Positions 1,357 to 23,253 of a stretch of 64,000 nt of DNA are shown here, piece after piece; position 1 is the first letter of the stretch, and the number at the start of each line of letters is the position of its first letter. The notes below the pieces were generated by a model. The model saw only the letters and a program-made list of their open reading frames with translations, searched no databases and had not been told where the DNA came from. Source of the stretch: a virus. Made by a program: the position numbers and the translations under genes. The stretch lies in IMG/VR virus record IMGVR_UViG_3300027759_000051; one strand, given 5' to 3'.

Positions 1357-1603
1357 TTCTGTACTCTCCGAGAAGCTCTTCTATGTCTACGTTTGGATAT
1401 AGTTTTTGTGCTTCCTCTTCATCTATTTCGTCAATTTCTGTTGACCCAGTTATTAGTGACTTCATGACTTCACTTGTTTCAATTAGTTCGCCTTCGCGTA
1501 ATTCAAACTCGTCTAACGTTTTTTTTGCATCATCAAATATTAAGACCATAAGTTTTACATTATCTGTATTGTTTTTTACTTTTGTGAAAAATCTTAACCT
1601 CAT
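1349..1603 (-). CDS. Small acidic protein, candidate immunity protein for the upstream RelA/SpoT-like domain
   Basis: 84 aa, acidic, ATGA overlap with the stop of the 2338-aa gene. Confidence 0.55.
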   Translation of the reverse strand: MRLRFFTKVKNNTDNVKLMVLIFDDAKKTLDEFELREGELIETSEVMKSLITGSTEIDEIDEEEAQKLYPNVDIEELLGEYRNG

Positions 1604-7600: not shown

Positions 7601-8616
7601 GAGACTCGCCGCTTTGATGCTTCAAGACCAGTTCTTGCCCTTTTTGCTCCACTGACAAACCAGCGAAACTCAGACGGTGTTTCCTCTACGGAAACATTCT
7701 CTAGATCTAGTTCTGGAGAATATGGGTCATTTCTATTCTTTGCCCTTGTCTGCTTTACTCCCCAGTGATTTTTCCACCACATATTGTTAAAGACGCGACC
7801 AGAAGAAAGTCCAGCCGTTTGCGGTCTTCCTCTTATTGCATCTCTTTCGCTGAGTTCAATACGTGACATTTCATCTGCCACGCCCGTCACTCTTCGTGCA
7901 AAATCTATTAGTTTCCCTGGAGAAAATCCAAAGCAGTTTGAACCACTTGCATCAGTAAATTGGTTTGCGGCAGGACTTCCTGGAGGGCACCTAAACTTGT
8001 TTAAGTCGTCAACCCATATACCTAGTTTTGCTGCTGCTCTTGCGCCAAGGCTCCCACCGGCAACGCTCCTACCAATATTCATTCCTGGTAATTTTTTAAA
8101 CTCAATAGATTTCTCCATTGGTTCACCAGACCAGAGCTTATAAGGATTTACCCGCTCTTCCGAGCCTTCAATAACTCCACCAGTCTTCGGACTGATCTTG
8201 TATTTACGTACACGGATTTCTGGTTTTTTTCTTTTTTCTTCTGCTTCTGGTTTTGCTTTTTCAACCCAGCCAAAGTTAACATCTTTTCTTGATTCGTTAA
8301 TTTTTGATTGTAGGTTTGGAAGCCACAGGAACGTTTTGTTTTCTCCGCCCTTTTCTCCCGGCTTGAATCTCACACCGTTTATATCAACTACACCAGGAAT
8401 CTCTCCGGTGTTGGTTCTTTTCTTTCCGTCTGAGTCTTTTGCACCAGGGAGTGCTTTGACTGCAAGATCTGCATTAAGGCGTGCAGATTTAATTGAATTT
8501 ATTACTGAGTTCTTAAAAGCTATGGCAGTCTCGTCAAAGTCTCTCATTTCTGAGAGAGGTGAGAAAAGACTAGGAGATAGATAGACTCTATTTTTACGGT
8601 GTCTCTTACCCGTCAT
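1600..8616 (-). CDS. Giant multi-module (polyvalent) protein: zincin HExxH, degenerate ART-like domain, 2x ParB/Srx, shared module, C-terminal RelA/SpoT-like nucleotidyltransferase
   Basis: YHELGH; YEQKLLLPPG; VIDGHHRWAA and VIDGHNRVA; RIKALKSLVRK, DVIRY, YQGIN, ELQFHT; six GLSSG motifs. Confidence 0.8.
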   Translation of the reverse strand: MTGKRHRKNRVYLSPSLFSPLSEMRDFDETAIAFKNSVINSIKSARLNADLAVKALPGAKDSDGKKRTNTGEIPGVVDINGVRFKPGEKGGENKTFLWLPNLQSKINESRKDVNFGWVEKAKPEAEEKRKKPEIRVRKYKISPKTGGVIEGSEERVNPYKLWSGEPMEKSIEFKKLPGMNIGRSVAGGSLGARAAAKLGIWVDDLNKFRCPPGSPAANQFTDASGSNCFGFSPGKLIDFARRVTGVADEMSRIELSERDAIRGRPQTAGLSSGRVFNNMWWKNHWGVKQTRAKNRNDPYSPELDLENVSVEETPSEFRWFVSGAKRARTGLEASKRRVSRLQDSLGIESSPEKEAVNADRIEAIEELNKRGLLELELTDRKSYSEVVSVISNRLRDKNPEAWAKMSDNQRQQLIEADVDRWYATERSMLDALLDTYVQMPDHIGKNLRELSWSKNPEGPDEARANAFGSGFEHSTIGIDLETIMDNQEAMLPSLDEYSRMRIDAIGGSDSENAQAANDFLVSSQLEARRTAALALGHEGFARHIMYHELGHTLQITAVGRKIKSEIDSNGYYEYFDYQGNKKRITKVEEITPEAVLDAFSDPDLLESINNVMSRSDSVKFLAGSYPQTVENPGIRAAEVSAELFALRMSGLIWGDDVDGALEWMDDVSDGRFFEDRAEYDLYEQDVFNTAGSSPLSKVSKNKIYYQSSIDDVRKRRNDRRSQNLKDVKTLASDLSEDEIIKAIIAHEASAEKAKIDGNLDDSSYFSDIAKEYEKAGNSKFKDSFSDILKTAREQNGLLSDKEISEIAEKRRIEEINNNVNNDTEEQLLNRLAEIEVDLMQDGISEDLKSKLQAEKRKYRQAIRDRRSESDENASVSSLNKFIDKKVDAILTSSGKNKKQKPKPKTFNSKKDAEEHALNERAKLLKTATPQERDAITQLADPEQVDIGNILDPEKQVGAAKAINKRNRRAIKMYSDGSGADVDDTSRLTGSLVGQVDNILIPSLELIDRSELTDAIEIETTLDLDLNQLGAKKDADLVIVDGILTGSVLGKKRPFNADSLEGNPTDGGKKPTRVMVRVQAGQKGHFPHWSDLSSDKPDDYEQKLLLPPGKLKIVGTKIDDDGNEILIAEIVHQNDPMQSLDSMISNIGEEGPNPNQHAKGTRRKLEKSVNSHAARRRKEGKSSTVVTPLTKQKDIEAKTKKINDDIDVVKASSSPQRRAPKADPDPLDDVYGEELSPVDRKVELQSRTSETFERLRDVLQFGGSDDDIEISESDVPESVRTLLKTKSNEELSEIIIKQALEFHNSVDKRPRVRLSGEELDDVMVGPSGRPLRYGDRSFVNEQRRRDVLAAQLRDALDTLTTDESKKFATSMGKKAMRELAKDELDYLVEDGTIELDTKKKLEDILDVAIPENEADFDSFELFEAITSVIEKQKAKNSARRSSGLSSGLVGTAVSAWNEWNNADPDNLQGTKDLLMIALLMKGIDATSAEDWAFGKLNAARAAVRTRREKRRGLSSGAKKSVSSRGEEIFKPESIDDALKMIKEGKLVELDSVDQVSTLIDKLNEIVQDALSKGDKAPNYDLCRVSVPGTNLFCSDSKGIERINMPQFSGTPVPGSDADKLPKDKGGGVDGTKAFEEHLSKIGIGVKRKKVKASELKATQNELVGSKVVGMITNEKFDPEGEAIFVSRDGYVIDGHHRWAAQVGRDLSDGKLGDLELNVIVVDSPISEILREANKWATDFGMASKSGKGDGNSSPPVVRDIKKGATPDRSPGLKANRDRPMSEYGMDWKLEYTEDANVESAKTWDGWDDIPVSKVDLDLDILPTESHLKGSSIDKVVSGEEPFREGYDPYLLIDETGKIFVIDGHNRVAMHRALGNKNMQARVLDLRETSAPWGTQDRQPAGLSSGRSAGLSSGRKTTRHSNRDPDLERQFPDPEENAKREAHEKFISDWEAGMDMSFTTIERQRDEVGGRFSPDFLRAREVGYNDARSRWFGKGTAEQPKNFNPKQKASTDYSSWYRNTVSQLGRGKANRSQDADREQEYAGEDAGIRDFLMSVAPDTSGWSREDRESLAKLEDEYGFGRGGSSPGRSAGLSSGKTIKKVQYKHGGYDMIEPDNPEPKPGAPRDVIEAATAQREKLVEAEKEITKTLIDLANKHEGEMRGLDFRIKALKSLVRKILDEKDTEHGGDAQKAAESMSDVIRYTTAFDPEEYVSGVKNMVEELQAAGYKLRIKNYWKGDDPYQGINIAAIGPDGTKFELQFHTPQSVEDKEDIHKLYETYRESKDNAQRRQLYDEMVQMANKIGVPYPPDELLSIGETKFQPFQEVDIKSLIRELETMGVSS

Positions 8617-8633: not shown

Positions 8634-10196
8634 TTAGTTGGTGTCTGTGTCTGATTGGAGCAACTCAAACTCAACCAAAGATGCGATGAAACTTTCATCA
8701 ACATTCCCTGACTTCTTTGACATATCTCCACCCATAACCCAATTTGGTGGGATCAAGTTTTCTTTTCCAAGATCCTTGGCACGCTTCATGATGTGAAGTC
8801 TTGCTGCTTCTTTATCCTTGGCACGACCATAGGACTGCACCGCGTTACGCAAGTCTTCTTCTGAAGTTATTGGGTAAGATCCATCAGGAAGGGCCATTCC
8901 TTCCTTAGCAAGAGACATTCTCTTATCATCAGAGAAAGCTCTCTTCAAGGCGATCTCTGCTGCTTCAGCTTCAATCTCTTGTGCTTCCTCTGATTCGTAC
9001 TTGTCGTAGCCAAGAACTTCGCCATCAAGTGACACGAAAACATCGTATGACTTTCCATCTATTCCATCAATCTCTACAGCGTATGAGTCAACGCCTTCAA
9101 ATACGTCTGGCTCAACTGCGATTACTTGTCCCTCTATTGACTTGATTGCAATTTCAGCAGCATCAGAGAAACCAATAACAGTCATTCCACTAAGTGCTGA
9201 CTTTTGCTCAAAGACTGACTCGTCAAGTTTGTGGAAACCAACAACTTCTGCTGAAGTTCCATCAACGAAAACTTCACGTACTTGACCATCTTTTGTTTGA
9301 ACATCAACAACGAACATGTCAGCGGCAGCGGAGTATCCAGAGTCAATGACTATTCCCTTGAATTGTGATTCAACCAATCCTTCAATTTGAAGTAATCCGG
9401 GGAATCCTTTTTCTGAGATGCATCCACCTGGGCAGTCATCACATACTGCTGCGTTGCCGGGGTGTGTCTTTCTCTCAATTGCGCAAACGTATCCGTTTTT
9501 GCCAATTTCGGCAGCCTTCATACCCATTGATTCAATTCTGCGCTTACGCATGTCTTCGAGCATCATGGCTTTTTCTTCGTCCATCATCTCGTCGTCTTCT
9601 TCTTCATCTTCCATCATAGGCACGCCCATGCCCATGCCTTTTTTCTTCTTTGGCATCGTATTCATGCCGTACATCTTCTCTTCGCCGTACTCTGCTGCTT
9701 CAAGCTCTTCGTCTGACATTTCTGCCATCATGCCCATTGGCGATGGAGCATTACGCTTGCCCATGCCTTTTTTCTTAGGCATGCCGTGCATGCCCTTTTC
9801 TTCGGTCATTTCTTCGCCCATTTGCTCTGGAACATAAGGCAGTTTTCCGTACTTTTTCTTATATCCATCCCAGCCATACTGCTTGTAGTAGGACATCTTC
9901 ATCTCGTCCATGTCTTCTGGAGACTCAACTTCTTCTTCTATCTCGTCGGCTTCTTCGTCGCCTTCGCCGAGATAGATATTTACTTCGTTCTCATCTTCCG
10001 ACATCTCTTCATCTTCCATCATTTCCTTATTTTTGGAAATTGGAATCATTTTCATCTCAACTGGAGCTGCTCCACACTTTGCACATACCGCTGCGCCAGC
10101 CTTGTAGCCGCAATCGGTGGCTACTGCACCTTTTGCACATTTAAGGACATTTCCTTCTCCGTCAATGCTTAACATTGGTTTATTTTCAGTTTCCAT
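8634..10196 (-). CDS. Head-region protein with Cys motifs, Met/Glu/Lys low-complexity tract, PepSY-like repeats and a C-terminal ALPDGSYPI domain
   Basis: AAEIAIKSIEGQVIAVE...YAVEI...YDVFVSLDGEVLG is PepSY-like; SD AGGAG upstream. Confidence 0.6.
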   Translation of the reverse strand: METENKPMLSIDGEGNVLKCAKGAVATDCGYKAGAAVCAKCGAAPVEMKMIPISKNKEMMEDEEMSEDENEVNIYLGEGDEEADEIEEEVESPEDMDEMKMSYYKQYGWDGYKKKYGKLPYVPEQMGEEMTEEKGMHGMPKKKGMGKRNAPSPMGMMAEMSDEELEAAEYGEEKMYGMNTMPKKKKGMGMGVPMMEDEEEDDEMMDEEKAMMLEDMRKRRIESMGMKAAEIGKNGYVCAIERKTHPGNAAVCDDCPGGCISEKGFPGLLQIEGLVESQFKGIVIDSGYSAAADMFVVDVQTKDGQVREVFVDGTSAEVVGFHKLDESVFEQKSALSGMTVIGFSDAAEIAIKSIEGQVIAVEPDVFEGVDSYAVEIDGIDGKSYDVFVSLDGEVLGYDKYESEEAQEIEAEAAEIALKRAFSDDKRMSLAKEGMALPDGSYPITSEEDLRNAVQSYGRAKDKEAARLHIMKRAKDLGKENLIPPNWVMGGDMSKKSGNVDESFIASLVEFELLQSDTDTN

Positions 10197-10301: not shown

Positions 10302-13300
10302 TCATTTCTTTTTTCTTGTTGTTGGTTTCCTTGTTGTTGCTGATCTCTTCTTTGGTGCTGGGCGTGATGCTTTTACGGCATCTGCCCTTTCCTTTGCTTC
10401 TTGCCTCGCTTCGTTGGCAATAGCGTCTGCTCTGTCTTGCGCTTCCTTGAGGGCTGGAACGTTCTCAATTATGTAATCAACGGCTTTTTGTGCAGATGTT
10501 GCTGCGCGCATCAAGCCGTCTGGATCATCTTTTAGCCTCTGTACCCAGAATGCGAGGTATTGAGCATGGTCTTCTCTCGGCTCAACAGTTATGTCAAGTA
10601 TTGACATAAGGTATGCCGTTCCAAGTTCTGCTATTAATTCCTCAAATGCATATTCTGACTCAACTTTGGGTGAACCCATGTTTGGCCTATCAAGACGACT
10701 GCTGTGCCCAGTCCAGTGAACTATCTCGTGGAGAAGTGTTCCGTAGTACCCCTCTGGAGATGAGAACTCCGAGAATGGCGGGATTACTATCTTGTCTTGA
10801 AGGGGGCTGAAGTATGCCCTATCTCCAGAATGGTTGAGGTCAATATTTAGAGCTTTAGAGATGTCATCAACATCTGTTCTTCTCATGTCCTCAGGCAATG
10901 CATCCTCAGGGTCGTATATTGAACGATCTATCCCTTCAACCTGATCTAAGTTGAAAACATAACTTTCGCGGAGTATTCCACGGCTCTCCGTTTTAAGTTC
11001 TCCTGGATTGTTCCTATCTTCAACTTCCCTGCCAACTCTTGAGTAGAAGATAATTGGAGTTCCTTTTTCTCCCTTTTTGACACTTCCACCCTTGCTCTTC
11101 CATTGGTCAAAAGAAGCCCATATTGGCTTTTCGTAGCCACCTTCCTGCTGGGCTATTGAGAGCATTAGTGTATTTATGCCTCTGTATCTGGCCTTAGTCG
11201 TGCCGTTTTGAGGAGTCATTCCACCCATGCGCCATGGCGGTGACCATCTTGTGCCATTTGCTATTGAATCTTCCATTTGCTGTATAACGCTCTTGGTCAA
11301 TGTCTGGTATAGCTCGTCTCTTCTTCCCGACGAAAGGGGGGCGCCATCGAGCCTTGCTGGGGTTGGAATGTCTGAAATATTTGAATATGCCTTTGGCAGC
11401 GATGGGTACTTAACGTCAACGCGTGCAGTCATTTTCCTATTCGCATTTCCATCTACATTTGAGAATCTTTTTGCGCCACTACTAAGCCCAGACGAAGGAT
11501 TTCCAAATATTTCATCGTACGTAAGGGATGGGAGTCCTTTTTTCTTCGCTGCTAGGTTGTATCTTTCAACCATCTCTTTTTTCTTAGAATCGGAGATACG
11601 TGATGCTTTTCCTGAAATCTTTATTGGCGAAGTAGGGCTAGCAGCCTTTGCTTTTGCTTTTCTTTCTTTCCATCTAGATATTATTCCATCTAGATCTTCC
11701 GACTTACTAAAGTTGAGAATTGCGTATGCTTTACCAACTCTGTTTTTCTCAACAACAGCCTTAAATCTCTCGTAAGCTTCTCCGGCCTGTGACATTCTGT
11801 CAAACTCTCCGACTTCTGGGCCAAATGCATCTGCGGCGCTCTTGATCACGCCACGGTCAATAAGGTGGTCAATATACTGCGATGGAACACCCTTCTTAGC
11901 CCAGTTGTTGAACCCTTGTTTGTCAATAACTAATCCTGTATCTAGTATTTTTTGCAAAACATCTAGTCTATTGTCTGGATCTGCCCCAAGTGCTTGAATT
12001 AGTTTACTCAATGGGAAGTTTGAACTCTCTAGTACAACACCTTGTGGAACCAGTTCCCCAGCATTTGCGCTAGGAGCTTTTGTTACCGTCTCGGCTCCAA
12101 TGACCACATCAGACAAATCGTCCGTGTATCCAAATGGTTCTGGAGATGGGTAAACGCTTCTTAGAATTTCCCCATCCTCAAGCAGTGCTCGGAATGAATC
12201 TTTTGCTCTATCTGAATCTCTTGATGTTTTGCCAATAGAAGTTATTGTTGTTTCTTCAGTGCTATCTATCCAGTAAGGAGAGTAGCCAAATCCCCATATT
12301 TGAGTACCAACTACATCTGGGTAGTCAAGGATCCCAATACGGCTACCAACTCCTTGGGATTCTTCGGCTGACTGGAATAAAGCTCCAGCCAAACCCCTAT
12401 CTTTTTCAGGGATTCGGCTAAGTTCTTGTTCGCTTATTACCGAGCTATTCACTCTTCCTTCAGTCAAGCCAAGGAAAATTGCCTCTGTTATTTTACGAAT
12501 ATCAAGTTCTGATACTCCATTACCTTCTGCTGTTATGCTTTCCAGTTCTTTAACTGAAATGTTCAAAGTCTTTGCTATTTGGCTGTCTGGTATTGATTTT
12601 CCAGTTTCGTCAACAAATAAGCTACGGATTTTTGCTCCATCCAGCAACCATTCTCCACCAGGAGAGTGCTCCAAGTTTTGCGTCATTGGTCTTGACTTTA
12701 TTTTTGAACCAATAAATCTTGTTCTTATTTTTTCTTTAATAAGATCATTCATTGGTGGAACATAAGTGCTTCTAGCCCCGGAAGACAAACCTCTGGAAAC
12801 GGTTAGTGGGAGTTGGGTTCTCCTGCTCAACCTGTTAGTTGGCGTTCCATCTCTTTGAACTAAATTAGTTGAAGAGTTTCTATTTGGTTTTCTGAAAACA
12901 GATATTTCTTCAAGTTTTCTTGGAATTGAAACAAGTCTTCCAGAAGTGTTTGGAGTTCCATCATTCCACTCCAGTGGCTTGATCCAGATATTCCTTCTGT
13001 CAACTCTTTCTACCGAGCCCCAGTCTTCTCCGCCAACCTGCACCATGTCGCCAACTTCTACGTTGCTACGTTCTGCTAGTGCTGCGCCAGATGAAAGTCC
13101 AGCTCTAGACCTATTTTCATAGGATCCTGGCCTGTTTCCAAATTCGTTATACCTGTCTGACAGCATACGTACTGCCATGTCTTCTTGTTCTTTGTCTCCG
13201 TCTGCAAAACTAAGCAAATCGTATGCAATTCTTTCGCGCATTGAAGCCAATTCTTCACGCTCATTAGCAAATGATGGTACTGATTCGTACTTTCTTCTAT

Positions 13301-13607
13301 ATCTGCTCTGTGCTTCTGAAACTTCTTTTGGCGTAGAGTTAAGCCTCTTGGCTATGTCTTCTGGAGTTAGTCCTTCGTAGCCAAGTAACCACATTTCACG
13401 GTCATTTGCGCGCTCTTCTACTCTTGCTGTTGCGCCAGATGTCCTTGAGGTACTTTTGCCTGAACTTAATTCTCTGTACTCGTCGGATGACGGGCCTGGT
13501 CTTCTTTTTCCTGGGCGTGTTTGTGCGCGTAGGATATCCCTATCCGCAAATTTCTGCCTATCTTCTTCAGACCAGGGGCGACGATTTGATACCTCGCCCC
13601 TTACCCT
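10302..13607 (-). CDS. HTH/SH3-like modules plus C-terminal ArdC-type antirestriction domain; probably the -1 frameshift extension of the protease polyprotein
   Basis: Frame is open 71 codons upstream of the track Met (13394), up to the slippery site; YRGINTLML, WASFDQW, VKKGEKG, VFNLDQV, LLHEIVHWTGH, YAFEELIAELG. Confidence 0.8.
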   Translation of the reverse strand, partial: RVRGEVSNRRPWSEEDRQKFADRDILRAQTRPGKRRPGPSSDEYRELSSGKSTSRTSGATARVEERANDREMWLLGYEGLTPEDIAKRLNSTPKEVSEAQSRYRRKYESVPSFANEREELASMRERIAYDLLSFADGDKEQEDMAVRMLSDRYNEFGNRPGSYENRSRAGLSSGAALAERSNVEVGDMVQVGGEDWGSVERVDRRNIWIKPLEWNDGTPNTSGRLVSIPRKLEEISVFRKPNRNSSTNLVQRDGTPTNRLSRRTQLPLTVSRGLSSGARSTYVPPMNDLIKEKIRTRFIGSKIKSRPMTQNLEHSPGGEWLLDGAKIRSLFVDETGKSIPDSQIAKTLNISVKELESITAEGNGVSELDIRKITEAIFLGLTEGRVNSSVISEQELSRIPEKDRGLAGALFQSAEESQGVGSRIGILDYPDVVGTQIWGFGYSPYWIDSTEETTITSIGKTSRDSDRAKDSFRALLEDGEILRSVYPSPEPFGYTDDLSDVVIGAETVTKAPSANAGELVPQGVVLESSNFPLSKLIQALGADPDNRLDVLQKILDTGLVIDKQGFNNWAKKGVPSQYIDHLIDRGVIKSAADAFGPEVGEFDRMSQAGEAYERFKAVVEKNRVGKAYAILNFSKSEDLDGIISRWKERKAKAKAASPTSPIKISGKASRISDSKKKEMVERYNLAAKKKGLPSLTYDEIFGNPSSGLSSGAKRFSNVDGNANRKMTARVDVKYPSLPKAYSNISDIPTPARLDGAPLSSGRRDELYQTLTKSVIQQMEDSIANGTRWSPPWRMGGMTPQNGTTKARYRGINTLMLSIAQQEGGYEKPIWASFDQWKSKGGSVKKGEKGTPIIFYSRVGREVEDRNNPGELKTESRGILRESYVFNLDQVEGIDRSIYDPEDALPEDMRRTDVDDISKALNIDLNHSGDRAYFSPLQDKIVIPPFSEFSSPEGYYGTLLHEIVHWTGHSSRLDRPNMGSPKVESEYAFEELIAELGTAYLMSILDITVEPREDHAQYLAFWVQRLKDDPDGLMRAATSAQKAVDYIIENVPALKEAQDRADAIANEARQEAKERADAVKASRPAPKKRSATTRKPTTRKKK

Positions 13608-13613
13608 TTTTTT
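13574..13613 (-). other. Putative -1 programmed ribosomal frameshift signal
   Basis: mRNA AGA AAA AAA GGG UAA (A_AAA_AAA at 13613-13607) followed after 5 nt by stem AGGGGCGA/UCGCCCCU; the -1 frame is that of the downstream ORF. Confidence 0.75.
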
Positions 13614-16600
13614 CTGTTACGTCCTGACGAGAGTCCACGCCCAGAATCTCTTCCAGACATTTCTCCGCTATCTTCACGCATTATCAAGTCGCTCTCAAGC
13701 CCAGCGATCCATCTCTTGAAAGAAGGGTCATTTGGGTTTGGGGACTTGCCTGTTTCACGCCTGTAGCTTGCGAACGCAGAAGCCCTCTCAGATGACGGAC
13801 GGCTCATGAATGAACTGTACATCCTGTCGGTTTCTGCCATGTCGGCATCAAGCAATGACTCACGTCTAGCGCTGTTCTCATCTGCGGCTATTGTGTCTTG
13901 CATCATCTCACGACGCCCAGATGAGAGGGAAGAACGTCGAGCGCTTCTTGGGTTACCAGAATCACTGAAGTTCATGTAGTTAGCAACCATGTCATTAACC
14001 TGTGCTGACATTTTACCATCACCAAAAAATGCAGCTTCCGATACTTCTTCTGCCAAATCGTCTCGATTGCTTCTATATTCATCAAGCTGTTGATTAAGTT
14101 CATTTACTCTTGAGTTTATTTCTTCAACCAATTTTGTGTATTCGTCTAGTTCAATGTCGCCTTCATCAAGATCCATTCTTGCTGACTCAAGTTCAAGTTT
14201 TGCTGCCTCAACTTCTCTATATGTATCCGGAATTAGTTCTCTTGCATCTTCTAAATCCTGAGACTTCCTGTCGTACCTGTCCTCAAACATTTCAACTTCA
14301 TCACGGATCTTTTGAATAAAATCATCAAGATCAGCAAGACTATCAACCGTTTCCGAACGTAATGGACCTCCATTATTTTTGTCAAAGTCGTATACGTCCA
14401 TTGCGTTTATTTGTCTTTGTACGTCTGGATTTTTTTCGTATACTGCTTTTACTATTTCTTCACGCACCTTGAGAGCATGTTCCAATTTTGCAAGTTGGTA
14501 ATTTCTTATTTCATCTCGATATGGTGCTGAGTTTTCTGCGTTTGGCATTACATATGAATACAGTTGTTCACCTGAAAATTCTTTTTCAACTTCTGGTGTC
14601 TCTGCCAAAACTTGAATAGCTGCTGTCCTGAGGGACGATTCGTTATTTGCATCAATCCTCTCGTAAGCATCGCCCATTGGCTCAAACTTCATTCCAGAAG
14701 ACATTCCTCTTGTTGCTGTTGAACTGTATACAGATCCAGCTACCGTTCCTACGTCTACGCCGTCGCTGTCACTTCTGCTGCGTCCAGAGGAGAGTCCCCT
14801 TGCGCTGCTTGGTGTTCTAGGCTTGCTAGGAACGTCAACATCTTGCAATGCTGCGTTGACTGCGTTTGTCGCTTCTGCTTCAAGTTTAAAGATTTCATTT
14901 ATATTTTCTTTTTCTGAAGCATTTAGAGCTGGGTCATTTGCTTGTAGTTTTGATGCAACTTCTTTATAGCGGTTTAATTCAAGTTCAATCTGTTTTGCCT
15001 GATTGAAAGCCAATACCCGTATAACGTTTTCGTCAGGTATCAAAGCAGCAACATCATTAAAAACTAAACCAGAAAGAATCTCTTCTGCGTCTTCATCATC
15101 TTTTGCTTGTCCGCTGTCTACGAGGACATTTACTAAATTCCAATCTTTTATTAGATCCTGCTTGGCATCTTCTACATCATAAAATGCACTTTCAGAACCA
15201 ATGTACTCGCCATCTTCATCAAAGTCTTCTGATAAATTTTCTTCAAATATTTCTCTTGCCGTAGATGCTAAATCCTCATCATCTACGTCATATATTTCCT
15301 TGAGCTTTGCGTTGACTATTTTATTATCTTCTGATCGCAGCGCTTCAAGATCTTTATCGGCAGTTTCAAACGATACTCCAGCTAAGCGTAGCTTTTGCTT
15401 GGCTAGCCTTAGTGCTTGAACATCTTTCATACGCTGAGTTGATGGGTGTTCTGCAATAAGATCACTTCTTCTAGAAAGTATATCTTTGTTGGTTTTTAAT
15501 GCAGTGTCATACTCTTGTGCCAGCTCAATTCTTTCTCTTCTTAGCCTTTGCACTTCTCTTGATGGAGATGGTATATCAGTAGCTCTTCTATCGCCGTCAA
15601 AAGTTTCAGGAGCTAACTCTGCTACTGAATCAAGAACATCATGTATCTGCAATGGCGTTGCATTAAACCTGTAAGCAAGTTCATCTACGCTTAGTCCACT
15701 ATGTGAAAAATCTTTAGCTATTGCTTCAGCAACTAATTGCTTTTTGTATTCCGTTTCGTCTTCACTCATCTGCCCAAACTGACGAATACGCTTTGGCTTT
15801 AGTTTTCCATCAAATGGCAATCCCATCCTAAAGCGCCTCGCAGCTGCAAGTCTTTGCACTCTGCCTGATATGGCAGGGCTTTTTTCTCCAGCAACAACTG
15901 GGTATTCGGCTAGGAGTTCTTGGTACGGGATTGTAACGTAGTCCCTCCAGAACATATCGTGGTCTTCTGCTGGTGTATCGGGAGTATCCCAGTTATGTGG
16001 TCGGGTTTTTGATGTTCCGTCATCTGGAGTGTCATAAACCCATTGTCCGGACTTTCCGTCCCAACGCGGCCTATGAGGTTCTCCATTGAGTTGTGCGTAA
16101 TCGCTTGGATCTCTCTTTGAAGGATCGTATTCCTCTCCGTACCTACCAGAAGACAGACCACCCCTGCCGTAAGGCCTATCAAGGTAGTCATCGTACGCAC
16201 TGGTCATTGCCTCAAGCGTGTTGCCATTAGCCATTCCTATGTACCGATTATGAATGGCATCACTTTCTTCCCAGTACCCAACTATGCTTGCTGCATCATC
16301 TGAAGAAACGCCATTTTCCTTGAGTGCGTTAATCGCGTCTCTTCTGAAGTTTGCTGAATAACCATATTTTGCTGGATTGTCTTCAAAGTCGGCTTTGGCA
16401 ATTTCTGGGTCATAATCACGCGAACCGGGTCGTTCGCTGTTTGCATTGTCTACGAAATAAATCTGCTCAATATTGGATCGTTCATTGTCGCTGAGTTCTT
16501 CCCATGAGGAGAATGGTTTACCTAGTTCTCTTCTTCCAGAAGACAATCCTCTTCTGCCTGAAGACATTCCTGCTCTGCTGTATGGGCCAGATGACGTGCT

Positions 16601-19600
16601 TTGCCTGCTTGCTCCAGGGATAAGTCCCTCTATTCTGTCAAGCCTGAATGTCCTATATTCACCGGACTCGCTATCTATGCCACCAAAGTAAAGAGCTCCA
16701 GCCTTTGACCGACGAAGAGAGTCGTAAATACCATTATCCGACTCTGCTCTGATCTCACGCATTTTGCCGTTGTACTTGAATGCAACCGCATCTGGGGAAA
16801 CAAACAAGTATCTGAAGTTTGCACCAATGTCATCGGTGCGGGCTGCTGCCTCTTCTGGGGTTATGTTTGCTGGGTCTCCTTGGCGTGGATCAATTCCTCG
16901 TCCAGAAGAGAGACCACCTTCACCTTCTAGGCCAGCCTCAAGTTCGGATGAAGTCTTTAAAAAGTTCCGCTGCTCATCTTCGGACATTGAATCTTCTATT
17001 GCTTGCCTGATGTCATAACTGTCTTCATCGTACGAGCGGTACCCAAAGTCGCCGGGGCGGTTTTTGTAGTCGGACTTATTGATGCCGTGGTTTCTTTCTA
17101 AATAATCCCAACCAGGGTCGTCGCTTAGTGAACTCGTAGTGTTGGTCAGTACTTCATATACTTCGTAACCTAGATCTTCAGTGGAAAATTCGTCTATTTC
17201 TTTCAGGCGCTCAGCCAATGGCACATCTTTGCCAAGGGAGTTGACGACAAGTTTTTCACCAGTTGGCTTTTTACCAGAAGACAGACCACCTTCTGGAATA
17301 AATATACCTCTAGTTGCGCCACTTTCATAGTCTCTTATTGACTTTTCAAACTGTTCTGGCGTCATATTTGCTCTGAGGGCGGTAAGGAAATCCTCGCCAG
17401 TCATTTCATCAATAGACTCTGATATATATGCTTCTTCAACTTCATCGCTTGATGGGCTGTAGTCACGTTCTGACCCACGTGATCCAGATGACTCAAAACC
17501 AAAATCAACACTGCCCGCATACGAGTCAAGTTCATCTTCATCCGGCATGCCACCATAAACGGCATCATAGATCTCTGCGTCACTCATCACGTCCCGTGCG
17601 GAGTTTGATGAATAGTCATACCAAGAGTTATCACCTGTAATCGTTCCGTCAGATATCAACTTCTCAATTACGTCTGCGTATTTTTTATCATTATCAGAAA
17701 GGTTTATATAAACTTCTTCTTTGCGATGATCGGGAAGTGCTGCAACCATCCTCAGTCGTTCTTTTAATTGCTCAGGAGACATTCTTCTACCAGAAGACAG
17801 ACCACCCCTGCCATACGGTCTATCAAGGTAGTCGTCGTAAGCACTGGTCATTGCCTCAAGCGTGTCGCCATTTGCATTTCTCAGGTAGCGCTTATGAATA
17901 GCGTCATTCTGTTCCCAGTTGGCAACTATGTCTCCTGCTTCATCTGAGGAGAGTCCAGTTTTCTTGAGTGCATTGACAGCGTCTCTTCTGAAGTTTGCAG
18001 AGTAACCATACTTTGATGGATTATCTTCAAAGTCTGCTTTAGCAATTTCTGGGTCGTAGTCACGTGAACCAGGACGCTCGCTGCCTGGATTATCCGCAAA
18101 ATACGTCTGCTCAATAGCGGAGCGCTCATTATTGCTGAGTTCTTCGTATGAGGAGAATGGCTTGCCTAGTTCTCTTCTACCAGAAGAGAGACCACCTCGT
18201 TCGGCATCCATTTCGGCAAGCATTTCAAATGCCTTCTCATATTCAGCGTCGTTTGTTTTGTTGTTTCTAAGCTTTTTAATTGTTGGGTGGTCTTCTTCGA
18301 GGACCCCTCTGTCAATCAGGAAATCGGCAAGTGCTTTAGGATCGTTTCCTGCTTCTTCTTCTGCGAGGTCTACCCAACTCTTTTTACCAGAAGAGAGACC
18401 ATCCCGCTGAATATCTGCGGCTAGAATTTCTTGCATTTTCTGTGCAACCAGTGAATTTGGCTCCCCATACTCATTGGTTAATCTATATCCCGGAACGCCC
18501 TCATTTGAAAGAGCTTCCCTTGCTCTTTGCATGATGGAGTCATATTCTGCATCACCAGAATTCGCCATCTCCTCAAGCCTGCGCTCGGCAGTCATCATTG
18601 CTCGATTTTTTGAGGTATTTCTTAGACTTGGGTCAACTGTCCGTTTAGGCTTTCTAGGCTTTGCGGGAATGTCTCCAGATTCATTAAAGCGAATGCCAGA
18701 AGAGAGACCGCCTCTACCGAATCCATATTCGCTTTCGAGTTTGGCTAGACTTTCTCTATCTTCCCTGGCCCAGCCAGAAGTATCTGGAGCGACGGCCATG
18801 AGGAAATCTTTCATTCCTGCGTCAATTCCTGCGTACTGCTGTTCTCTGCTTGAATCTTCCGAGCGGTTAGCTTTGCCTCGTCCTAATTGAGAAACGACGT
18901 CTCTGTACCAACTTGAATACTTCGTAGAAGCCTTCTGCTTTTCATTGAAGTCTTTTGGCTGCTTTGCTGTGCCTTTGCCAAACCAGCGTGACCTTGCGTC
19001 GTTGTAGCCAAGTTCACGACCACGAAGGAAGTCCTCTGAGAATCTGCCACCACGCTCGTCTTGCTGACGCCCAATCGTGGTGAAGCTCATGTCCATGCCA
19101 GCTTCCCATGCATCAATCAGTTTGTCATGCGCTTCTCTCTTTGCATTTTCTTCTGCATTTGGGAATTGCTTCTCAAGGTCACGATCCCTATTTGAGTGAC
19201 GGCTCAGATCTCTTTTACCAGAAGATAGAGCTCTCCTGTCTGCTGCTGGTTTCTTGCTTCCGCCTTTTTGCTTCTTGAATGCTGCTGTTGCGCGTGCTGC
19301 GTCAACGACGCCTCTTGTTCCGAAGTCATTGATGCCTGGAATTGCTGGTCTTTGGTATGGAGTTCCTTCTTGAACTAATCCGTCGTTGTCGCCGTCCCAT
19401 GCCTTTGGATTAAATCTTGCAGCCATTCCACGGCCAGCCCTAGCAGTACGTCCTGCAAGGTTTCTGCCGAGTGCTTTTACTGCGTTATTAACTGCTTCTG
19501 CAAAATCTTTATTTACGCCAGATGTGAAAACAATTCCACCATCATCAACATATGCTTCTGCTCGGTAGTAGTCAATGATTGGGTCAATTGCCTGCTTCAT

Positions 19601-21070
19601 CTCAAATGCATCTTTTTTAGTTACTGGCAAGTAATAAATTTCATTGCTTGCAGACTTTACGGAGTATTCGCCTATGCGTGTCAACTTGACTGAAGGCACA
19701 AGCGCATCACGCTTGCTCTTGACTGCATGCCTTAGGTCGCCTTTTACAAATACTTCTAGGTACTTGTCTTCAACCTCTTTGAGCCACTTGACTTCTTCTT
19801 CTTGCATTTCTTCTAAGACTTCTTGCTTCTTGATAGGGCTTACCTTCACTACGCCCTCTGGGATAACGGCGAAGCGACACTTGCCACCATCTTCCACTTT
19901 CAATGCAATTATCTTGCAAACACCATTGCCTTCATACATGACGCAGTTTGAGCATTTGACGCCAATTTTTGCGACCATGTTCTCCGCTGCAGGCTTATAT
20001 CCAGCCCAAACGCCGTTCGCATCTTCGTTGAACTTGCCGTGTCTTTTGGTTATCTTTATAAGGGCTTCAGCAAGATCTGCTTCTTCCTGAACCAACTTTG
20101 GCTTTCCTGCTGGCTTGCTTGATGAATCTTCACCAGCGTAGTCAATTTGAACAAGTGGCATCTGGTTAGGCATGCCACCTGGCAAGACCTGTGGAACAAT
20201 AACTGTCTGATTTGGATTCTGTGGAACCATTGGACGCGAAGGCATTCCCATTGGCATCATTGGTTGTGGTTGTTGTGGCATCTGGCCTGGCATTTGCATT
20301 GGCTTATTTATGCGCTGTGGAGCAGAGAACATATAGGTACCGTTGTCATTATGAAAACGACACTTGTATGACTCTTCTTCGTCTTCTTCGCCAGTGGTAA
20401 ATGTGACAGAGCCATCCTCAATGGACGAGATCTTTACTTTTGATCCAGTTTGCAAAGAAAGTTCTTCCTGCAGCTTCCTCTGAACTTCATCTTCTGGGAT
20501 GTTTGGCATTCCCTGCATCATTGGCATCATCATTGGTTTTACGCCATCTGCGTTTTTTACAGAAATTGTGCCAGTCAGCTGATTAGCACCGTGCAAAACT
20601 GGAGAAACTTCATAGAGTTCAACTTCGTACAAGATGTTTGCTTGTGATCCTTGGTCAAACTGTGCACGGAGAGTTTTGTATCCGATAGACCACTCTTGCT
20701 CTTCACCAAAAAATGCAACATTGGCGAATGCTTCTTTGCCTTTTTCTGAGTTTAAGTTGAATTGGACTTTCGCATAAAGTCCACCGATTCCGGCTGATCT
20801 CATTTTTGGTGGGAGGCGAGGATCGTTTGGCGGAACCTCATACATTTCAAGGACTTTACCTATTGGATCGTTCCAGTTATGACCCCATACAACACGTGGC
20901 TTACGGCGCAGAAGGCTCTTAGCAAATGCTCCAGTTGCGCATACGTCACCAACGGAATCCTTGTTACCTATACCAGCAACAAAACACTCAACTATTCCCT
21001 GTGCTTGGTCTAGATTTACCTGACCAGTGCTTGCTTTGTATTGAATATTTTGTGAGTATGTATAGGACAT
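13601..21070 (-). CDS. HK97-family prohead protease fused to a long GLSSG-punctuated polyprotein
   Basis: N-terminal NKDSVGDV..GAF, VVWGHNW..PIGK, EWSIGY, LYEVSPVLHGAN; 14 x[LM]SSG motifs; SD AAGGAG. Confidence 0.88.
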   Translation of the reverse strand: MSYTYSQNIQYKASTGQVNLDQAQGIVECFVAGIGNKDSVGDVCATGAFAKSLLRRKPRVVWGHNWNDPIGKVLEMYEVPPNDPRLPPKMRSAGIGGLYAKVQFNLNSEKGKEAFANVAFFGEEQEWSIGYKTLRAQFDQGSQANILYEVELYEVSPVLHGANQLTGTISVKNADGVKPMMMPMMQGMPNIPEDEVQRKLQEELSLQTGSKVKISSIEDGSVTFTTGEEDEEESYKCRFHNDNGTYMFSAPQRINKPMQMPGQMPQQPQPMMPMGMPSRPMVPQNPNQTVIVPQVLPGGMPNQMPLVQIDYAGEDSSSKPAGKPKLVQEEADLAEALIKITKRHGKFNEDANGVWAGYKPAAENMVAKIGVKCSNCVMYEGNGVCKIIALKVEDGGKCRFAVIPEGVVKVSPIKKQEVLEEMQEEEVKWLKEVEDKYLEVFVKGDLRHAVKSKRDALVPSVKLTRIGEYSVKSASNEIYYLPVTKKDAFEMKQAIDPIIDYYRAEAYVDDGGIVFTSGVNKDFAEAVNNAVKALGRNLAGRTARAGRGMAARFNPKAWDGDNDGLVQEGTPYQRPAIPGINDFGTRGVVDAARATAAFKKQKGGSKKPAADRRALSSGKRDLSRHSNRDRDLEKQFPNAEENAKREAHDKLIDAWEAGMDMSFTTIGRQQDERGGRFSEDFLRGRELGYNDARSRWFGKGTAKQPKDFNEKQKASTKYSSWYRDVVSQLGRGKANRSEDSSREQQYAGIDAGMKDFLMAVAPDTSGWAREDRESLAKLESEYGFGRGGLSSGIRFNESGDIPAKPRKPKRTVDPSLRNTSKNRAMMTAERRLEEMANSGDAEYDSIMQRAREALSNEGVPGYRLTNEYGEPNSLVAQKMQEILAADIQRDGLSSGKKSWVDLAEEEAGNDPKALADFLIDRGVLEEDHPTIKKLRNNKTNDAEYEKAFEMLAEMDAERGGLSSGRRELGKPFSSYEELSNNERSAIEQTYFADNPGSERPGSRDYDPEIAKADFEDNPSKYGYSANFRRDAVNALKKTGLSSDEAGDIVANWEQNDAIHKRYLRNANGDTLEAMTSAYDDYLDRPYGRGGLSSGRRMSPEQLKERLRMVAALPDHRKEEVYINLSDNDKKYADVIEKLISDGTITGDNSWYDYSSNSARDVMSDAEIYDAVYGGMPDEDELDSYAGSVDFGFESSGSRGSERDYSPSSDEVEEAYISESIDEMTGEDFLTALRANMTPEQFEKSIRDYESGATRGIFIPEGGLSSGKKPTGEKLVVNSLGKDVPLAERLKEIDEFSTEDLGYEVYEVLTNTTSSLSDDPGWDYLERNHGINKSDYKNRPGDFGYRSYDEDSYDIRQAIEDSMSEDEQRNFLKTSSELEAGLEGEGGLSSGRGIDPRQGDPANITPEEAAARTDDIGANFRYLFVSPDAVAFKYNGKMREIRAESDNGIYDSLRRSKAGALYFGGIDSESGEYRTFRLDRIEGLIPGASRQSTSSGPYSRAGMSSGRRGLSSGRRELGKPFSSWEELSDNERSNIEQIYFVDNANSERPGSRDYDPEIAKADFEDNPAKYGYSANFRRDAINALKENGVSSDDAASIVGYWEESDAIHNRYIGMANGNTLEAMTSAYDDYLDRPYGRGGLSSGRYGEEYDPSKRDPSDYAQLNGEPHRPRWDGKSGQWVYDTPDDGTSKTRPHNWDTPDTPAEDHDMFWRDYVTIPYQELLAEYPVVAGEKSPAISGRVQRLAAARRFRMGLPFDGKLKPKRIRQFGQMSEDETEYKKQLVAEAIAKDFSHSGLSVDELAYRFNATPLQIHDVLDSVAELAPETFDGDRRATDIPSPSREVQRLRRERIELAQEYDTALKTNKDILSRRSDLIAEHPSTQRMKDVQALRLAKQKLRLAGVSFETADKDLEALRSEDNKIVNAKLKEIYDVDDEDLASTAREIFEENLSEDFDEDGEYIGSESAFYDVEDAKQDLIKDWNLVNVLVDSGQAKDDEDAEEILSGLVFNDVAALIPDENVIRVLAFNQAKQIELELNRYKEVASKLQANDPALNASEKENINEIFKLEAEATNAVNAALQDVDVPSKPRTPSSARGLSSGRSRSDSDGVDVGTVAGSVYSSTATRGMSSGMKFEPMGDAYERIDANNESSLRTAAIQVLAETPEVEKEFSGEQLYSYVMPNAENSAPYRDEIRNYQLAKLEHALKVREEIVKAVYEKNPDVQRQINAMDVYDFDKNNGGPLRSETVDSLADLDDFIQKIRDEVEMFEDRYDRKSQDLEDARELIPDTYREVEAAKLELESARMDLDEGDIELDEYTKLVEEINSRVNELNQQLDEYRSNRDDLAEEVSEAAFFGDGKMSAQVNDMVANYMNFSDSGNPRSARRSSLSSGRREMMQDTIAADENSARRESLLDADMAETDRMYSSFMSRPSSERASAFASYRRETGKSPNPNDPSFKRWIAGLESDLIMREDSGEMSGRDSGRGLSSGRNRKKG
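16145..16549 (-). repeat. Internal duplicated module, copy 2 (405 nt, GLSSG to GLSSG)
   Basis: RRELGKPFSS(W/Y)EELS...YDDYLDRPYGRGGLSSG matches 17789-18193. Confidence 0.9.
17789..18193 (-). repeat. Internal duplicated module, copy 1 (405 nt)
   Basis: Same length and highly similar protein and DNA to 16145-16549. Confidence 0.9.
18695..19231 (-). repeat. Module shared with the 2338-aa gene (2338-2895)
   Basis: RHSNRD.DLE.QFP..EENAKREAH...WEAGMDMSFTTI...REDRESLAKLE.EYGFGRGG present in both genes. Confidence 0.9.
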
Positions 21071-21165: not shown

Positions 21166-23253
21166 TTACTGAAACATTCTTCCAAATGTCCACGCTCTGC
21201 GTGATTCGTCTTCGGCAACTTCAAATCTCTTCCGCGCCATGACGTTTGCATAGTGAGAAACTACTAATTCCCTAAATGCTGATGATCTTTGCTCTTCTCC
21301 TGCAACATTTAAGGATGTGAACATTGATTCTGAGATTTTGTCTCTTGTTTCTTTATTTATTTCTTTTATTCTGATCATCTGGGAACTTACTTGAGCCTGA
21401 ATATCTTGACTAGAAGCCCACGCTTTAGCGCTCTTGGTGTCTTTGTTTGTGACTTCTTTGTGCGCATCTTGAATAATTGCCGCAATGACTGGCTTTATGT
21501 CTTCATCCATCTGGCGATCCCATGTTTCTGACTGAAATATGGAGTCAATGTCTAGAGTTCCAGCAAAGAGTGATTTTTTAGCCTTTGCTCCTGAGATTTT
21601 TTCCAGAACAACACGCTGTTGTCTCTCTACAACTCTTTCAATGCTTCTGTTCAGAATCTCTTCCCACCTGTCAAGATCCAACTGCTCTAGCGATTTCGTG
21701 CCAGGGACTAGTGGTATTGGGGAAAACTGTTCTTCTTCTTCTTCTTCTTCTGGCGGAGCTGTCGCTAAGGTTGTTTCTGGTGGTGACTGCTCTGGCGGAA
21801 CTCCCAATGGTGGGGCAACTGCATCTTGAGGCATTGTTGTTTGAGCAAGTGCTCCAGCCATTGTGTTTGGATCAATCGGCTGCTCTCCGCCTGGCATGCC
21901 AGGAGGCATTCCCATTACTGGAGGCATTCCCGGCATTCCGGGAGCACCTGGTGGCATTCCTGGGGCACCTGGAGGCATTCCTGGAACTCCGCCTTGCTCC
22001 GCAGCAGGTGGTTCCATCTTCTTCTTTGTATTTGCAATCGGAATGAGGTTTGGATTCATCAATAGCGAGTCCGACAAATCGCTTTCTGTCTCTTTGCGCC
22101 CAGAACCATATCTGTATTCGTTGTTTGATATGAGTCCAGCTTGGAACTCATCCATCAAGTATCTTCTCTGCTCTTGCTTGTAAAGCATGATGATTGGGAC
22201 GTTTGATGTGTCAAAGTCTAGGTAGTAGTCATCGTCAAGTTCATCAAGCCCCCGCTCAAGGATCTCAAGATGAGGAAGCATTGTTTCCATCCAGAAAACA
22301 CGAATCTCTTCGGCTGCATTGCTGAAGGTTCTGCCAGCAGCGTTTCCTATTACGGATTCTGGTACACCGAATGATGCAAGTATTTCTTCTTTTGTTATCT
22401 GCCTCATCTGCATGTATGCAGCATCTCGTGGGCTGGCAGATGTGTCAACGTAGTCAACGCCATCATCAGATGCGATCACAGAGGTGTACCCAGTTCTAGA
22501 CAGGTTTCCCCTGAAGCGACTCTTGAGTTCTTCCTTGTCATCGTCGTCAATTTCGCCACGGAGAACTAAAAGTCCACCTGGTCTTCCGTCGTTGAGCAAG
22601 TAGTTTCTATTGTAGAGCTTTGCTAAGTTTTCTATTTCAATCGCTACTCCACATGCTTCTAGCGGAGTCAACGAAAGGTAAGGATCGAGCGGGTGAGGTC
22701 TGCGAATCCACAGAACATCCTCAGGTTTTAGAGTAACTTTTTGTCCATGAGGCATTTGAACCTCAAATCCAGAAACGAACTTTTTTGCATCTGGAATTGG
22801 AGCCGTAGATTGAGGCGGAAGAAGGTTCAGGCCGACAATGCCGCCATCACGTCCCCGCACCTTCTCTATAAAGACACCACGGGTACCAAGCAACAATTGA
22901 GCAGAAACTCTATATCTAAAGATAAAAGAGTTTTCACCGATATTTGATTTATTGTTCAGAACTTCAAGAAGCCTTGAGTTTTTTGCGCCCTTACCAGAGA
23001 GTATTTCCCCGTCTGGCGAGTTATCTTTTCTCAGTTGTATTGGAAGTCTTGCTTGGTTTCCTGCAATAGCGTCAATACACCTAGCAACCCAAGTGACCTT
23101 CTGCATGCCCTCTTTGTATGCTCGCTCAATATCCCATGAGTCCCTATATGGTCTTCCTGAATAGCCGGGGTTGTGAGATATTGGAGCACCAGGCCCAAGA
23201 TCTTTTGATTCCGCCCCATTTATAGATTTATCACTACGGGAGTTCCATGCCAT
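21166..23253 (-). CDS. Portal protein (HK97-like) with Pro/Gly/Met-rich linker and C-terminal extension
   Basis: WVARCIDAIA, LSLTPLEA, NYLLNDGRPGG, EILASFGVPESVIG, TFSNA, GLISNNEYR. Confidence 0.88.
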   Translation of the reverse strand: MAWNSRSDKSINGAESKDLGPGAPISHNPGYSGRPYRDSWDIERAYKEGMQKVTWVARCIDAIAGNQARLPIQLRKDNSPDGEILSGKGAKNSRLLEVLNNKSNIGENSFIFRYRVSAQLLLGTRGVFIEKVRGRDGGIVGLNLLPPQSTAPIPDAKKFVSGFEVQMPHGQKVTLKPEDVLWIRRPHPLDPYLSLTPLEACGVAIEIENLAKLYNRNYLLNDGRPGGLLVLRGEIDDDDKEELKSRFRGNLSRTGYTSVIASDDGVDYVDTSASPRDAAYMQMRQITKEEILASFGVPESVIGNAAGRTFSNAAEEIRVFWMETMLPHLEILERGLDELDDDYYLDFDTSNVPIIMLYKQEQRRYLMDEFQAGLISNNEYRYGSGRKETESDLSDSLLMNPNLIPIANTKKKMEPPAAEQGGVPGMPPGAPGMPPGAPGMPGMPPVMGMPPGMPGGEQPIDPNTMAGALAQTTMPQDAVAPPLGVPPEQSPPETTLATAPPEEEEEEEQFSPIPLVPGTKSLEQLDLDRWEEILNRSIERVVERQQRVVLEKISGAKAKKSLFAGTLDIDSIFQSETWDRQMDEDIKPVIAAIIQDAHKEVTNKDTKSAKAWASSQDIQAQVSSQMIRIKEINKETRDKISESMFTSLNVAGEEQRSSAFRELVVSHYANVMARKRFEVAEDESRRAWTFGRMFQ

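Follow-up and report, generated by a model that had tools for sequence, protein, structure and literature searches.

A probable programmed −1 ribosomal frameshift site within the gene for the head-protease polyprotein of an uncultured phage

Introduction

The locus considered here raises the question of how a phage may come to translate the part of a reading frame that precedes its first start codon. It is located on a stretch of viral DNA of 64,000 nucleotides (IMG/VR record IMGVR_UViG_3300027759_000051), the whole of which is referred to as the window and which belongs to an uncultured phage that encodes a tail sheath and whose genome measures roughly 150 kb; all window positions given in the following lie on the minus strand. 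Here, the portal gene (23253..21166) is followed by a first open reading frame (ORF1, 21070..13601), the product of which is a polyprotein of 2489 aa assigned an S78-type prohead protease at its N-terminus, and zero-frame translation ends with the last codon of this frame. A second open reading frame, annotated as ORF2 (10302..13394, 1030 aa) and carrying an ArdC-type unit at its C-terminus, begins with an ATG that is separated from the ORF1 stop by 206 nt. The earlier note on this DNA, which had been made from the sequence by itself, proposed that a −1 shift on the heptamer A_AAA_AAA joins the protease polyprotein to the ArdC reading frame. This central claim has since found support in (i) the invariance of the site within its clade, (ii) the coding signature of the stretch between the two frames and (iii) the single frame in which more distant relatives read across the junction. 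Based on these comparisons of sequences, the head-protease polyprotein gene probably contains a programmed −1 ribosomal frameshift site.

The junction between the two reading frames

The 3' end of ORF1 reads AAC AGA AAA AAA GGG TAA, as had been stated in the earlier note together with the length of 2489 aa, and the in-frame X_XXY_YYZ heptamer that was placed there at 13613-13607 was indeed identified as A_AAA_AAA (13607..13613), in phase with ORF1. Upstream of it the −1 frame is closed by a TAA (13617..13619) which, together with the ORF1 stop at 13601-13603, limits the region in which a shift could take place to 13 nt. This overlap of the zero and the −1 frame, CAGAAAAAAAGGG, contains A_AAA_AAA as its sole slippery sequence. 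Past the TAA at 13619-13617 the −1 frame is open for 1104 codons to 10302 and, when counted from the AGG at 13607, it comprises 1101 codons to the stop at 10302, corresponding to a fused product of 3589 aa; the figures given before (1101 codons, about 3589 aa) were thus reproduced. The 2489-aa form terminates 6 residues past the last GLSSG linker. As to the weight of the heptamer, in-phase X_XXY_YYZ heptamers occur nine times in ORF1, i.e., about once per 277 codons, and the chance of encountering one within the 13 nt amounts to roughly 1%; the heptamer alone is weak evidence, while its combination with the other features is not.

The first of these other features is a predicted stimulatory hairpin (13574..13601), which follows the heptamer after a 5-nt spacer and whose arms, AGGGGCGA and UCGCCCCU, form a G+C-rich stem of 8 bp plus one inner G-C pair around a 12-nt loop. 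The existence of an 8-bp stem 5 nt past the heptamer (13601-13574) had been described earlier, and it was confirmed with a predicted folding energy of −18.3 kcal/mol for the hairpin alone (z = −5.1), a value which none of 200 shuffled sequences attained. When the 121-nt context of the site was folded, −36.2 kcal/mol resulted (z = −3.7). A search of Rfam returned no relevant family. As to an upstream enhancer of the Shine-Dalgarno-like kind, an optional element known from dnaX, an AGGA is found 8 nt before the heptamer (13625-13622); since the recurring GLSSG motif contributes it through its Ser-Gly codons, TCA GGA, it is not specific to the site.

Sequence constraint among the closest relatives

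Searching a large protein database identified two ORF2 homologues with 96% and 81% identity, respectively, the cluster members of which led to further contigs. The resulting clade set consists of 12 contigs with DNA, originating from ENA submitters, JGI and Logan assemblies and from different runs, and of 2 further contigs represented by gene calls only. Throughout the clade contigs the upstream gene stops 206 nt before the ATG of the ArdC gene. The 12 contigs resolve into six haplotypes, their divergence from the window amounting to up to 13% of sites, and all six retain AGAAAAAAAGGGTAA and the unchanged hairpin, i.e., the arrangement A7-GGG-TAA-hairpin. The conservation of heptamer and hairpin in related genomes, recommended earlier as a check, was consequently found to be complete (12 of 12 contigs), and a continuous reading frame, which had been named as the finding that would refute a shift, was seen in none of the 12. 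The length of ORF1 varies across the clade from 2489 to 2879 aa with the junction being fixed, and the split has been maintained over considerable divergence.

Within 1406 aligned nt the six haplotypes display 251 variable sites, none of which falls into a block of 85 nt (13531..13615) that starts 2 nt ahead of the heptamer and runs on for 69 nt beyond the stop. This block is the longest invariant run of the alignment, the next one measuring 33 nt, and 0 of 20,000 random placements reached a run of 85. Its invariance indicates that the site is subject to an additional constraint at the nucleotide level. Outside the block a different pattern emerges for the 206 nt which connect the ORF1 stop with the first ORF2 ATG (13395..13600, hereafter the bridge). 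Counted by codon positions 1/2/3, variable sites distribute as 31/22/62 in the ORF1 part (ORF1 frame), as 2/2/12 among the 16 sites of the bridge that lie outside the invariant block (−1 frame) and as 21/13/86 in ORF2 proper (−1 frame). Comparison of the window with locus L003 revealed 8 synonymous and 2 non-synonymous changes for the bridge in the −1 frame, whereas in the two remaining frames, which are interrupted by stops, 0-1 of the changes are synonymous. Third-position bias and synonymous excess in the −1 frame jointly indicate that the bridge is translated in the frame of ORF2 despite the lack of a start codon.

Beyond this clade, a curated phage collection yielded no DNA relatives and protein matches to the ArdC domain only, and the closest portals from cultured phages are those of actinophages, with about 40% identity and a different head-gene layout. 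Nothing was found when IMG/VR was searched with ORF2 as a single protein, when metagenome contigs were scanned by protein alignment or for the upstream DNA pattern, or when IMG/VR was searched for the same pattern.

Probable translation across a stretch without start codon

The bridge is open in the −1 frame only and encodes a conserved basic module (RRPWSEEDRQKFADRDILRAQTRPGKRRPGPSSDEY..LSSG), which is present in the window as a single copy. Within the −1 frame no ATG, GTG or TTG is encountered before the ATG at 13394, i.e., 71 codons past the shift point; that 71 codons including an ELSSGK motif precede the annotated Met was already part of the earlier reading and holds, with ATG, GTG and TTG being absent from them. 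Likewise upheld was the view that this Met lacks an evident Shine-Dalgarno (SD) sequence, which the neighbouring genes do possess: ORF1 is preceded by AAGGAG and the next gene by AGGAG, at 8-9 nt. Neither a promoter-like site within the bridge nor a T-run after the hairpin was found, and the only near-cognate codon of the bridge, an ATC at bridge positions 66-68, is located downstream of the conserved PWSEEDRQKFAD residues. Structural modelling placed the annotated Met (residue 23) within the first helix (residues 10-28) of a helical module that follows the ELSSG linker, with a predicted local distance difference test (pLDDT) score of 63-79 over residues 10-28 and a mean of 70. In the clade of the window, the basic module can be made only through a frameshift.

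The module itself (13452-13607) is strongly basic, comprises approximately 50 residues of the pattern RRPWSEEDRQ.FAD....RA.T.PGKR.PGPS.DEF and is bounded by GLSSG/LSSG motifs. At least 15 relatives contain it in their polyproteins too, with 40-67% identity and with each locus matched by one stretch, examples being L010:16410-16586, L014:15059-15208, L039:15023-15280 and L078:14498-14635.

The undivided gene of more distant relatives

A portal search yielded 80 IMG/VR loci whose portals are 61-71% identical, and these served as the distant set. In these loci the portal gene is succeeded by one undivided reading frame for the protease polyprotein which, where its end is visible, encodes 1939-3208 aa and is directly followed by a homologue of the 520-aa gene that succeeds ORF2 in the window; in many other loci more than 3300 codons pass without a stop before the locus ends. 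ArdC resides within this single frame in, e.g., L018, L014, L010, L039, L007 and L078, and homologues of the middle region of ORF2 are found inside the single frame of relatives, too.

The junction itself was addressed by tblastn. The predicted fusion sequence ..GLSSGRNRKK|RVRGEVSNRRPWSEEDRQ.. (also RVRGEVSNRRPWSEEDRQKFADRD) aligns across the join to single in-frame stretches of L010, L014, L004/5, L039, L052, L017, L065 and others. The match in L010 reads GLSSGRNR--RTQG--SKRRPMSDADRQAFADG and that in L004/5 GLSSGR--AKRTVGEVARRKPFTEEERQAFRDG, and in L039 and L052 the alignment extends by ~35 residues further upstream. A single added A renders the gene of the window continuous (N R K K R V R G E V), as it is in the relatives. 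Given that the relatives are single-frame across the junction, the split is a derived and clade-specific one, situated in a Lys-rich linker just after GLSSG, and the downstream part is most likely still translated as part of the polyprotein. At the linker homologous to the A7 tract, L039 (15131-15142) and L029 possess an in-frame A9 (CGT AAA AAA AAA GGA), a tract that could easily lose or gain a base. The GGGGCGA/TCGCCCC hairpin is missing from the corresponding site in relatives whose frame is continuous. For several of these relatives different but likewise strong folds are predicted at that site, L004 for instance reaching −38.5 kcal/mol over 111 nt, in view of which the idea that the relatives lack structure at this site is not put forward.

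A search for longer fused homologues gave only a distant S78-helicase polyprotein, and a third protein search was swamped by low-complexity candidates, missed even known relatives and is hence uninformative. In the S78-helicase polyprotein, P0004 (2789 aa), helicase domains of the AAA_30/UvrD type are joined to an S78 prohead protease, and polyproteins consisting of a protease and enzyme cargo may represent a wider theme.

Reaching the second frame: proposed mechanism and rival explanations

The suggested mechanism assumes that most ribosomes would read AGA AAA AAA GGG and stop at the TAA, thus yielding the 2489-aa form, while a fraction of them would pause on the downstream hairpin. During this pause the two tRNA-Lys could slip in tandem by one base back on A_AAA_AAA, and translation of the 1101 codons of the −1 frame would then give the 3589-aa form, expected to be the minor product. 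The extension would add the basic module, a helical HTH-like (helix-turn-helix-like) module, more linker-bounded modules and finally the unit made up of ArdC-N and the zincin peptidase. Both forms may enter the prohead by means of their protease moiety, the GLSSG linkers may be cut by the N-terminal protease, and the shift would set the amount of ArdC-type cargo relative to the protease; the assumptions of prohead entry, linker cleavage and cargo dosing derive from where the gene is located, from its S78 domain and from what has been proposed for polyvalent proteins (PMC5512222). Of the features by which −1 frameshift sites are recognized, a short overlap of the frames, an in-phase heptamer, a (predicted) structure within the usual 5-9 nt downstream, conservation among the relatives sharing the split and a coding downstream frame were found at this locus.

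The same 3589-aa fusion would be obtained if RNA polymerase stuttered on the A7 tract (T7 in the template) and added one A in some of the mRNAs. As the product is the same, such transcriptional slippage would equally explain why the bridge is coding, why A7 is conserved and why the fusion is collinear with the relatives. Runs of A are its classical substrate, as documented by Thermus dnaX and by insertion sequence (IS) elements, and the A9 tracts of L039 and L029 occupy the very linker in question. With seven A's the run is, however, short for a bacterial RNA polymerase to slip on efficiently, and its phase is precisely the one that two tRNA-Lys slipping in tandem require. The conserved hairpin resides downstream at a spacing typical of ribosomal frameshift stimulators, and a downstream RNA hairpin is not known to play a role in transcriptional slippage. 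The shortness of the A-run, its phase and the location of the hairpin hence favour slippage of the ribosome, and slippage of the polymerase is considered unlikely.

Somewhat less probable again is a fixed A8-to-A7 mutation which split the ancestral gene without any fusion being made, so that ORF2 is translated independently, either from the ATG at 13394 or from a non-standard codon of the bridge. The ancestral state, one reading frame according to the relatives and restored by one extra A, fits such an event, as does the fact that ORF2 is intact and under purifying selection, and every gene caller starts it at the ATG at 13394. The bridge is what this explanation fails to accommodate: the 206 nt ahead of the ATG vary like coding sequence read in the frame of ORF2 (third positions make up 12 of the 16 variable sites), their product is still 55-67% identical to the homologous protein module of the relatives, and they offer neither ATG, GTG or TTG nor an SD sequence or a promoter-like site, the ATC as the only near-cognate codon lying past conserved residues. 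Furthermore, the ATG is located inside a predicted helix, and the 85-nt invariant block and the hairpin would be left unexplained.

Phase variation at the DNA level, i.e., switching between A7 and A8 by replication slippage with some genomes encoding the fusion, would draw on the mutability of homopolymers and on the exact in-frame fusion that A8 would yield. A7 was, however, present in all 12 assembled contigs from different samples, where it has to be considered that assemblies hide minority variants, and no fused protein of the clade was returned by the search for longer homologues, crowded as this was by low-complexity candidates. With the conserved hairpin unexplained too, phase variation is regarded as very improbable. 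Finally, although an apparent frameshift most commonly goes back to a wrong homopolymer length, a sequencing or assembly artefact concealing a true A8 and a continuous reading frame of 3590 aa is excluded for practical purposes by the occurrence of A7 in the window and in 12 other contigs, which stem from three assembly pipelines and from different runs and belong to six diverged haplotypes.

Several points weigh against a programmed ribosomal frameshift, too. In-phase heptamers are common in these Lys-rich genes, and in E. coli A_AAA_AAA is less slippery than A_AAA_AAG. The site is carried by one clade only, represented by six haplotypes, and the invariance of hairpin and block precludes a covariation test. 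No supported structure was obtained for the 43 invariant nt beyond the hairpin (local fold z = −1.8). A pseudoknot between the hairpin loop and a downstream GAUAUC was rejected, the pairing being no better than in shuffled sequences, 17.5% of which pair equally well. In addition, another giant GLSSG protein, encoded at 1600-8616, has a start of its own, and fusion of proteins of this kind to the protease is hence not obviously required. With these points taken into account, a programmed −1 ribosomal frameshift is still held to be the likely origin of ORF2 translation.

Modules of the polyprotein and neighbouring genes

The protease domain of ORF1 comprises residues 24-169 (about 20564-21001) and was matched by the Pfam family PF04586 (Peptidase S78) with E = 8e-11 and 42.7 bits, the curated cut-off being 21, as well as by the PHROG head maturation protease family phrog_80 with E = 1.5e-26. 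According to this profile match and to the position after the portal gene, the N-terminus of ORF1 is a Peptidase S78, i.e., a prohead protease of the HK97 type. At the opposite end of the extension, the ArdC-N and MPTase-PolyVal unit (10497..11315) is composed of an ArdC N-terminal domain (about 10953-11315; PF08401, E = 1e-29) and of a zincin domain of the MPTase-PolyVal type (about 10497-10871; PF18818, E = 2e-37), both above the cut-off, and its region is matched by phrog_7245 with E = 1e-82. Going by these profile matches, the C-terminus of ORF2 is an ArdC-N domain followed by the zincin MPTase-PolyVal in the manner of polyvalent proteins, within a multi-module phage protein. The earlier note had labelled the cargo as HTH, SH3 and ArdC; ArdC is borne out by these matches, whereas HTH is at best a tentative label, the match to it being a sub-threshold one. 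For the module after the bridge, an HTH assignment was not adopted, as its matches to LuxR/GerE-type domains stayed below threshold with Pfam and were weak with Foldseek.

Within ORF2, nucleotide identity to L003 falls to 38-63% at 12362-12460, compared with about 85-90% around it. The stretch coincides with a terminator-like inverted repeat of 15 pairs (12421-12385), and it may be a hypervariable or indel-prone linker. Module order varies between lineages: when the window (10302-21070) was compared with L018:4191-13391, L014:6539-16440 and L010:8118-17290, the relatives were seen to have ArdC in the middle of the polyprotein and upstream of the basic module, whereas it is located at the far C-terminus in the window. 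Linker-bounded modules thus appear to have been shuffled between lineages.

The next gene after ORF2 (8634-10196, 520 aa) encodes a protein without match to any Pfam or PHROG family, and its homologues in the relatives display a Cys-rich N-terminal stretch (..KCAKGA..CG...G...CGKCG..). In many relatives this gene is preceded by a conserved promoter-like motif (..GTTATAATT.. / ..AGTATAATTTTACGGC..), located between the polyprotein and the 520-aa homologue at L004:20852-20950 and L007:13254-13350 and likewise in L048, L073, L078 and L082. Upstream of 10196 the window retains the TTACGGCACGA..AGGAGCC part of this motif, and none such precedes ORF2. A gene for a protein of 2338 aa (1600-8616) begins 17 nt past the stop of the 520-aa gene, in the −1 frame and without an SD sequence of the AGGAG type; matches of its product to 'head morphogenesis' PHROG families are confined to the C-terminal ~230 residues. 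No major capsid protein was identified among the window proteins scanned, and no tRNA genes were found in the window.

Relation to known systems and significance

Programmed frameshifts of phages are textbook knowledge for tail chaperones and some capsid proteins. As regards the signal, the closest resemblance is to the −1 sites of E. coli dnaX and of the IS3/IS911 type (A_AAA_AAG with a stem-loop), which share with the site described here an in-phase heptamer of the all-A, Lys-Lys kind, followed after 5-6 nt by a G+C-rich stem-loop, as well as an immediate zero-frame stop and an overlap of few codons. They differ in that the heptamer ends in G rather than in A, and a specific SD-like enhancer is not evident upstream of the present site, where the only AGGA is that of the recurring SSG codons. 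Moreover, the gene families are unrelated, and the dnaX shift shortens the product whereas the one proposed here lengthens it by 1101 residues. As regards the setting, lambda G/GT and T7 10A/10B are comparable, being parts of late structural operons of tailed phages in which two overlapping reading frames give rise to a C-terminally extended minor form of an assembly protein. Unlike in these, the gene is that of a prohead protease fused to a polyvalent cargo protein and the extension is far larger, and while G/GT is conserved across tailed phages, the present site is confined to one young clade.

In its logic the proposed arrangement resembles retroviral and totiviral Gag-Pol (Gag-Pro-Pol), where a capsid-targeted protease polyprotein is extended by enzyme domains in a fraction of translations. 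The enzyme domains of Gag-Pol are packaged and released by the maturation protease, steps to which packaging and GLSSG cleavage would correspond here. There is no homology between the two, the host element is a bacterial DNA phage, and the cargo is an anti-restriction (ArdC) one instead of a replicase.

Polyvalent proteins of phages and conjugative elements were described as multi-domain giants with ArdC-N and MPTase domains which are encoded beside portal and terminase genes and for which packaging and joint delivery with the DNA were predicted (Iyer et al. 2017, PMC5512222). In that survey, assemblin-like peptidases are located at C-termini only and frameshifting is not mentioned (PMC5512222). 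Unlike in the proteins surveyed, the S78 protease described here is N-terminal and the ArdC part would be reached by recoding. Literature searches returned no report of a frameshift in a prohead protease or in a polyvalent-cargo polyprotein. The signal is canonical; for phages its gene context seems to be a new one, and what it would imply for function is attractive, if hypothetical. A wider interpretation, advanced tentatively and with the balance leaning slightly to the other side, is that a tailed phage has independently reached the Gag-Pro-Pol solution: the cargo, consisting of ArdC, peptidase and DNA-binding modules, would be gained on frameshifting only, the efficiency of the shift would set the number of copies per head that are co-injected with the DNA, and the site would have arisen recently from the Lys-rich linker of a continuous gene.

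The database copies of this gene all annotate ORF2 from the internal Met, so that the 71 codons and the fusion have been missed by gene callers. If confirmed, the site would be evolutionarily young, and since sister lineages keep the unsplit gene, the steps leading to it (an A-run of Lys codons, the loss of one A and the gain of a hairpin) would be open to reconstruction. Confirmation would likewise link recoding to the dosing of virion-packaged counter-defence proteins and would provide a bacterial analogue of Gag-Pol.

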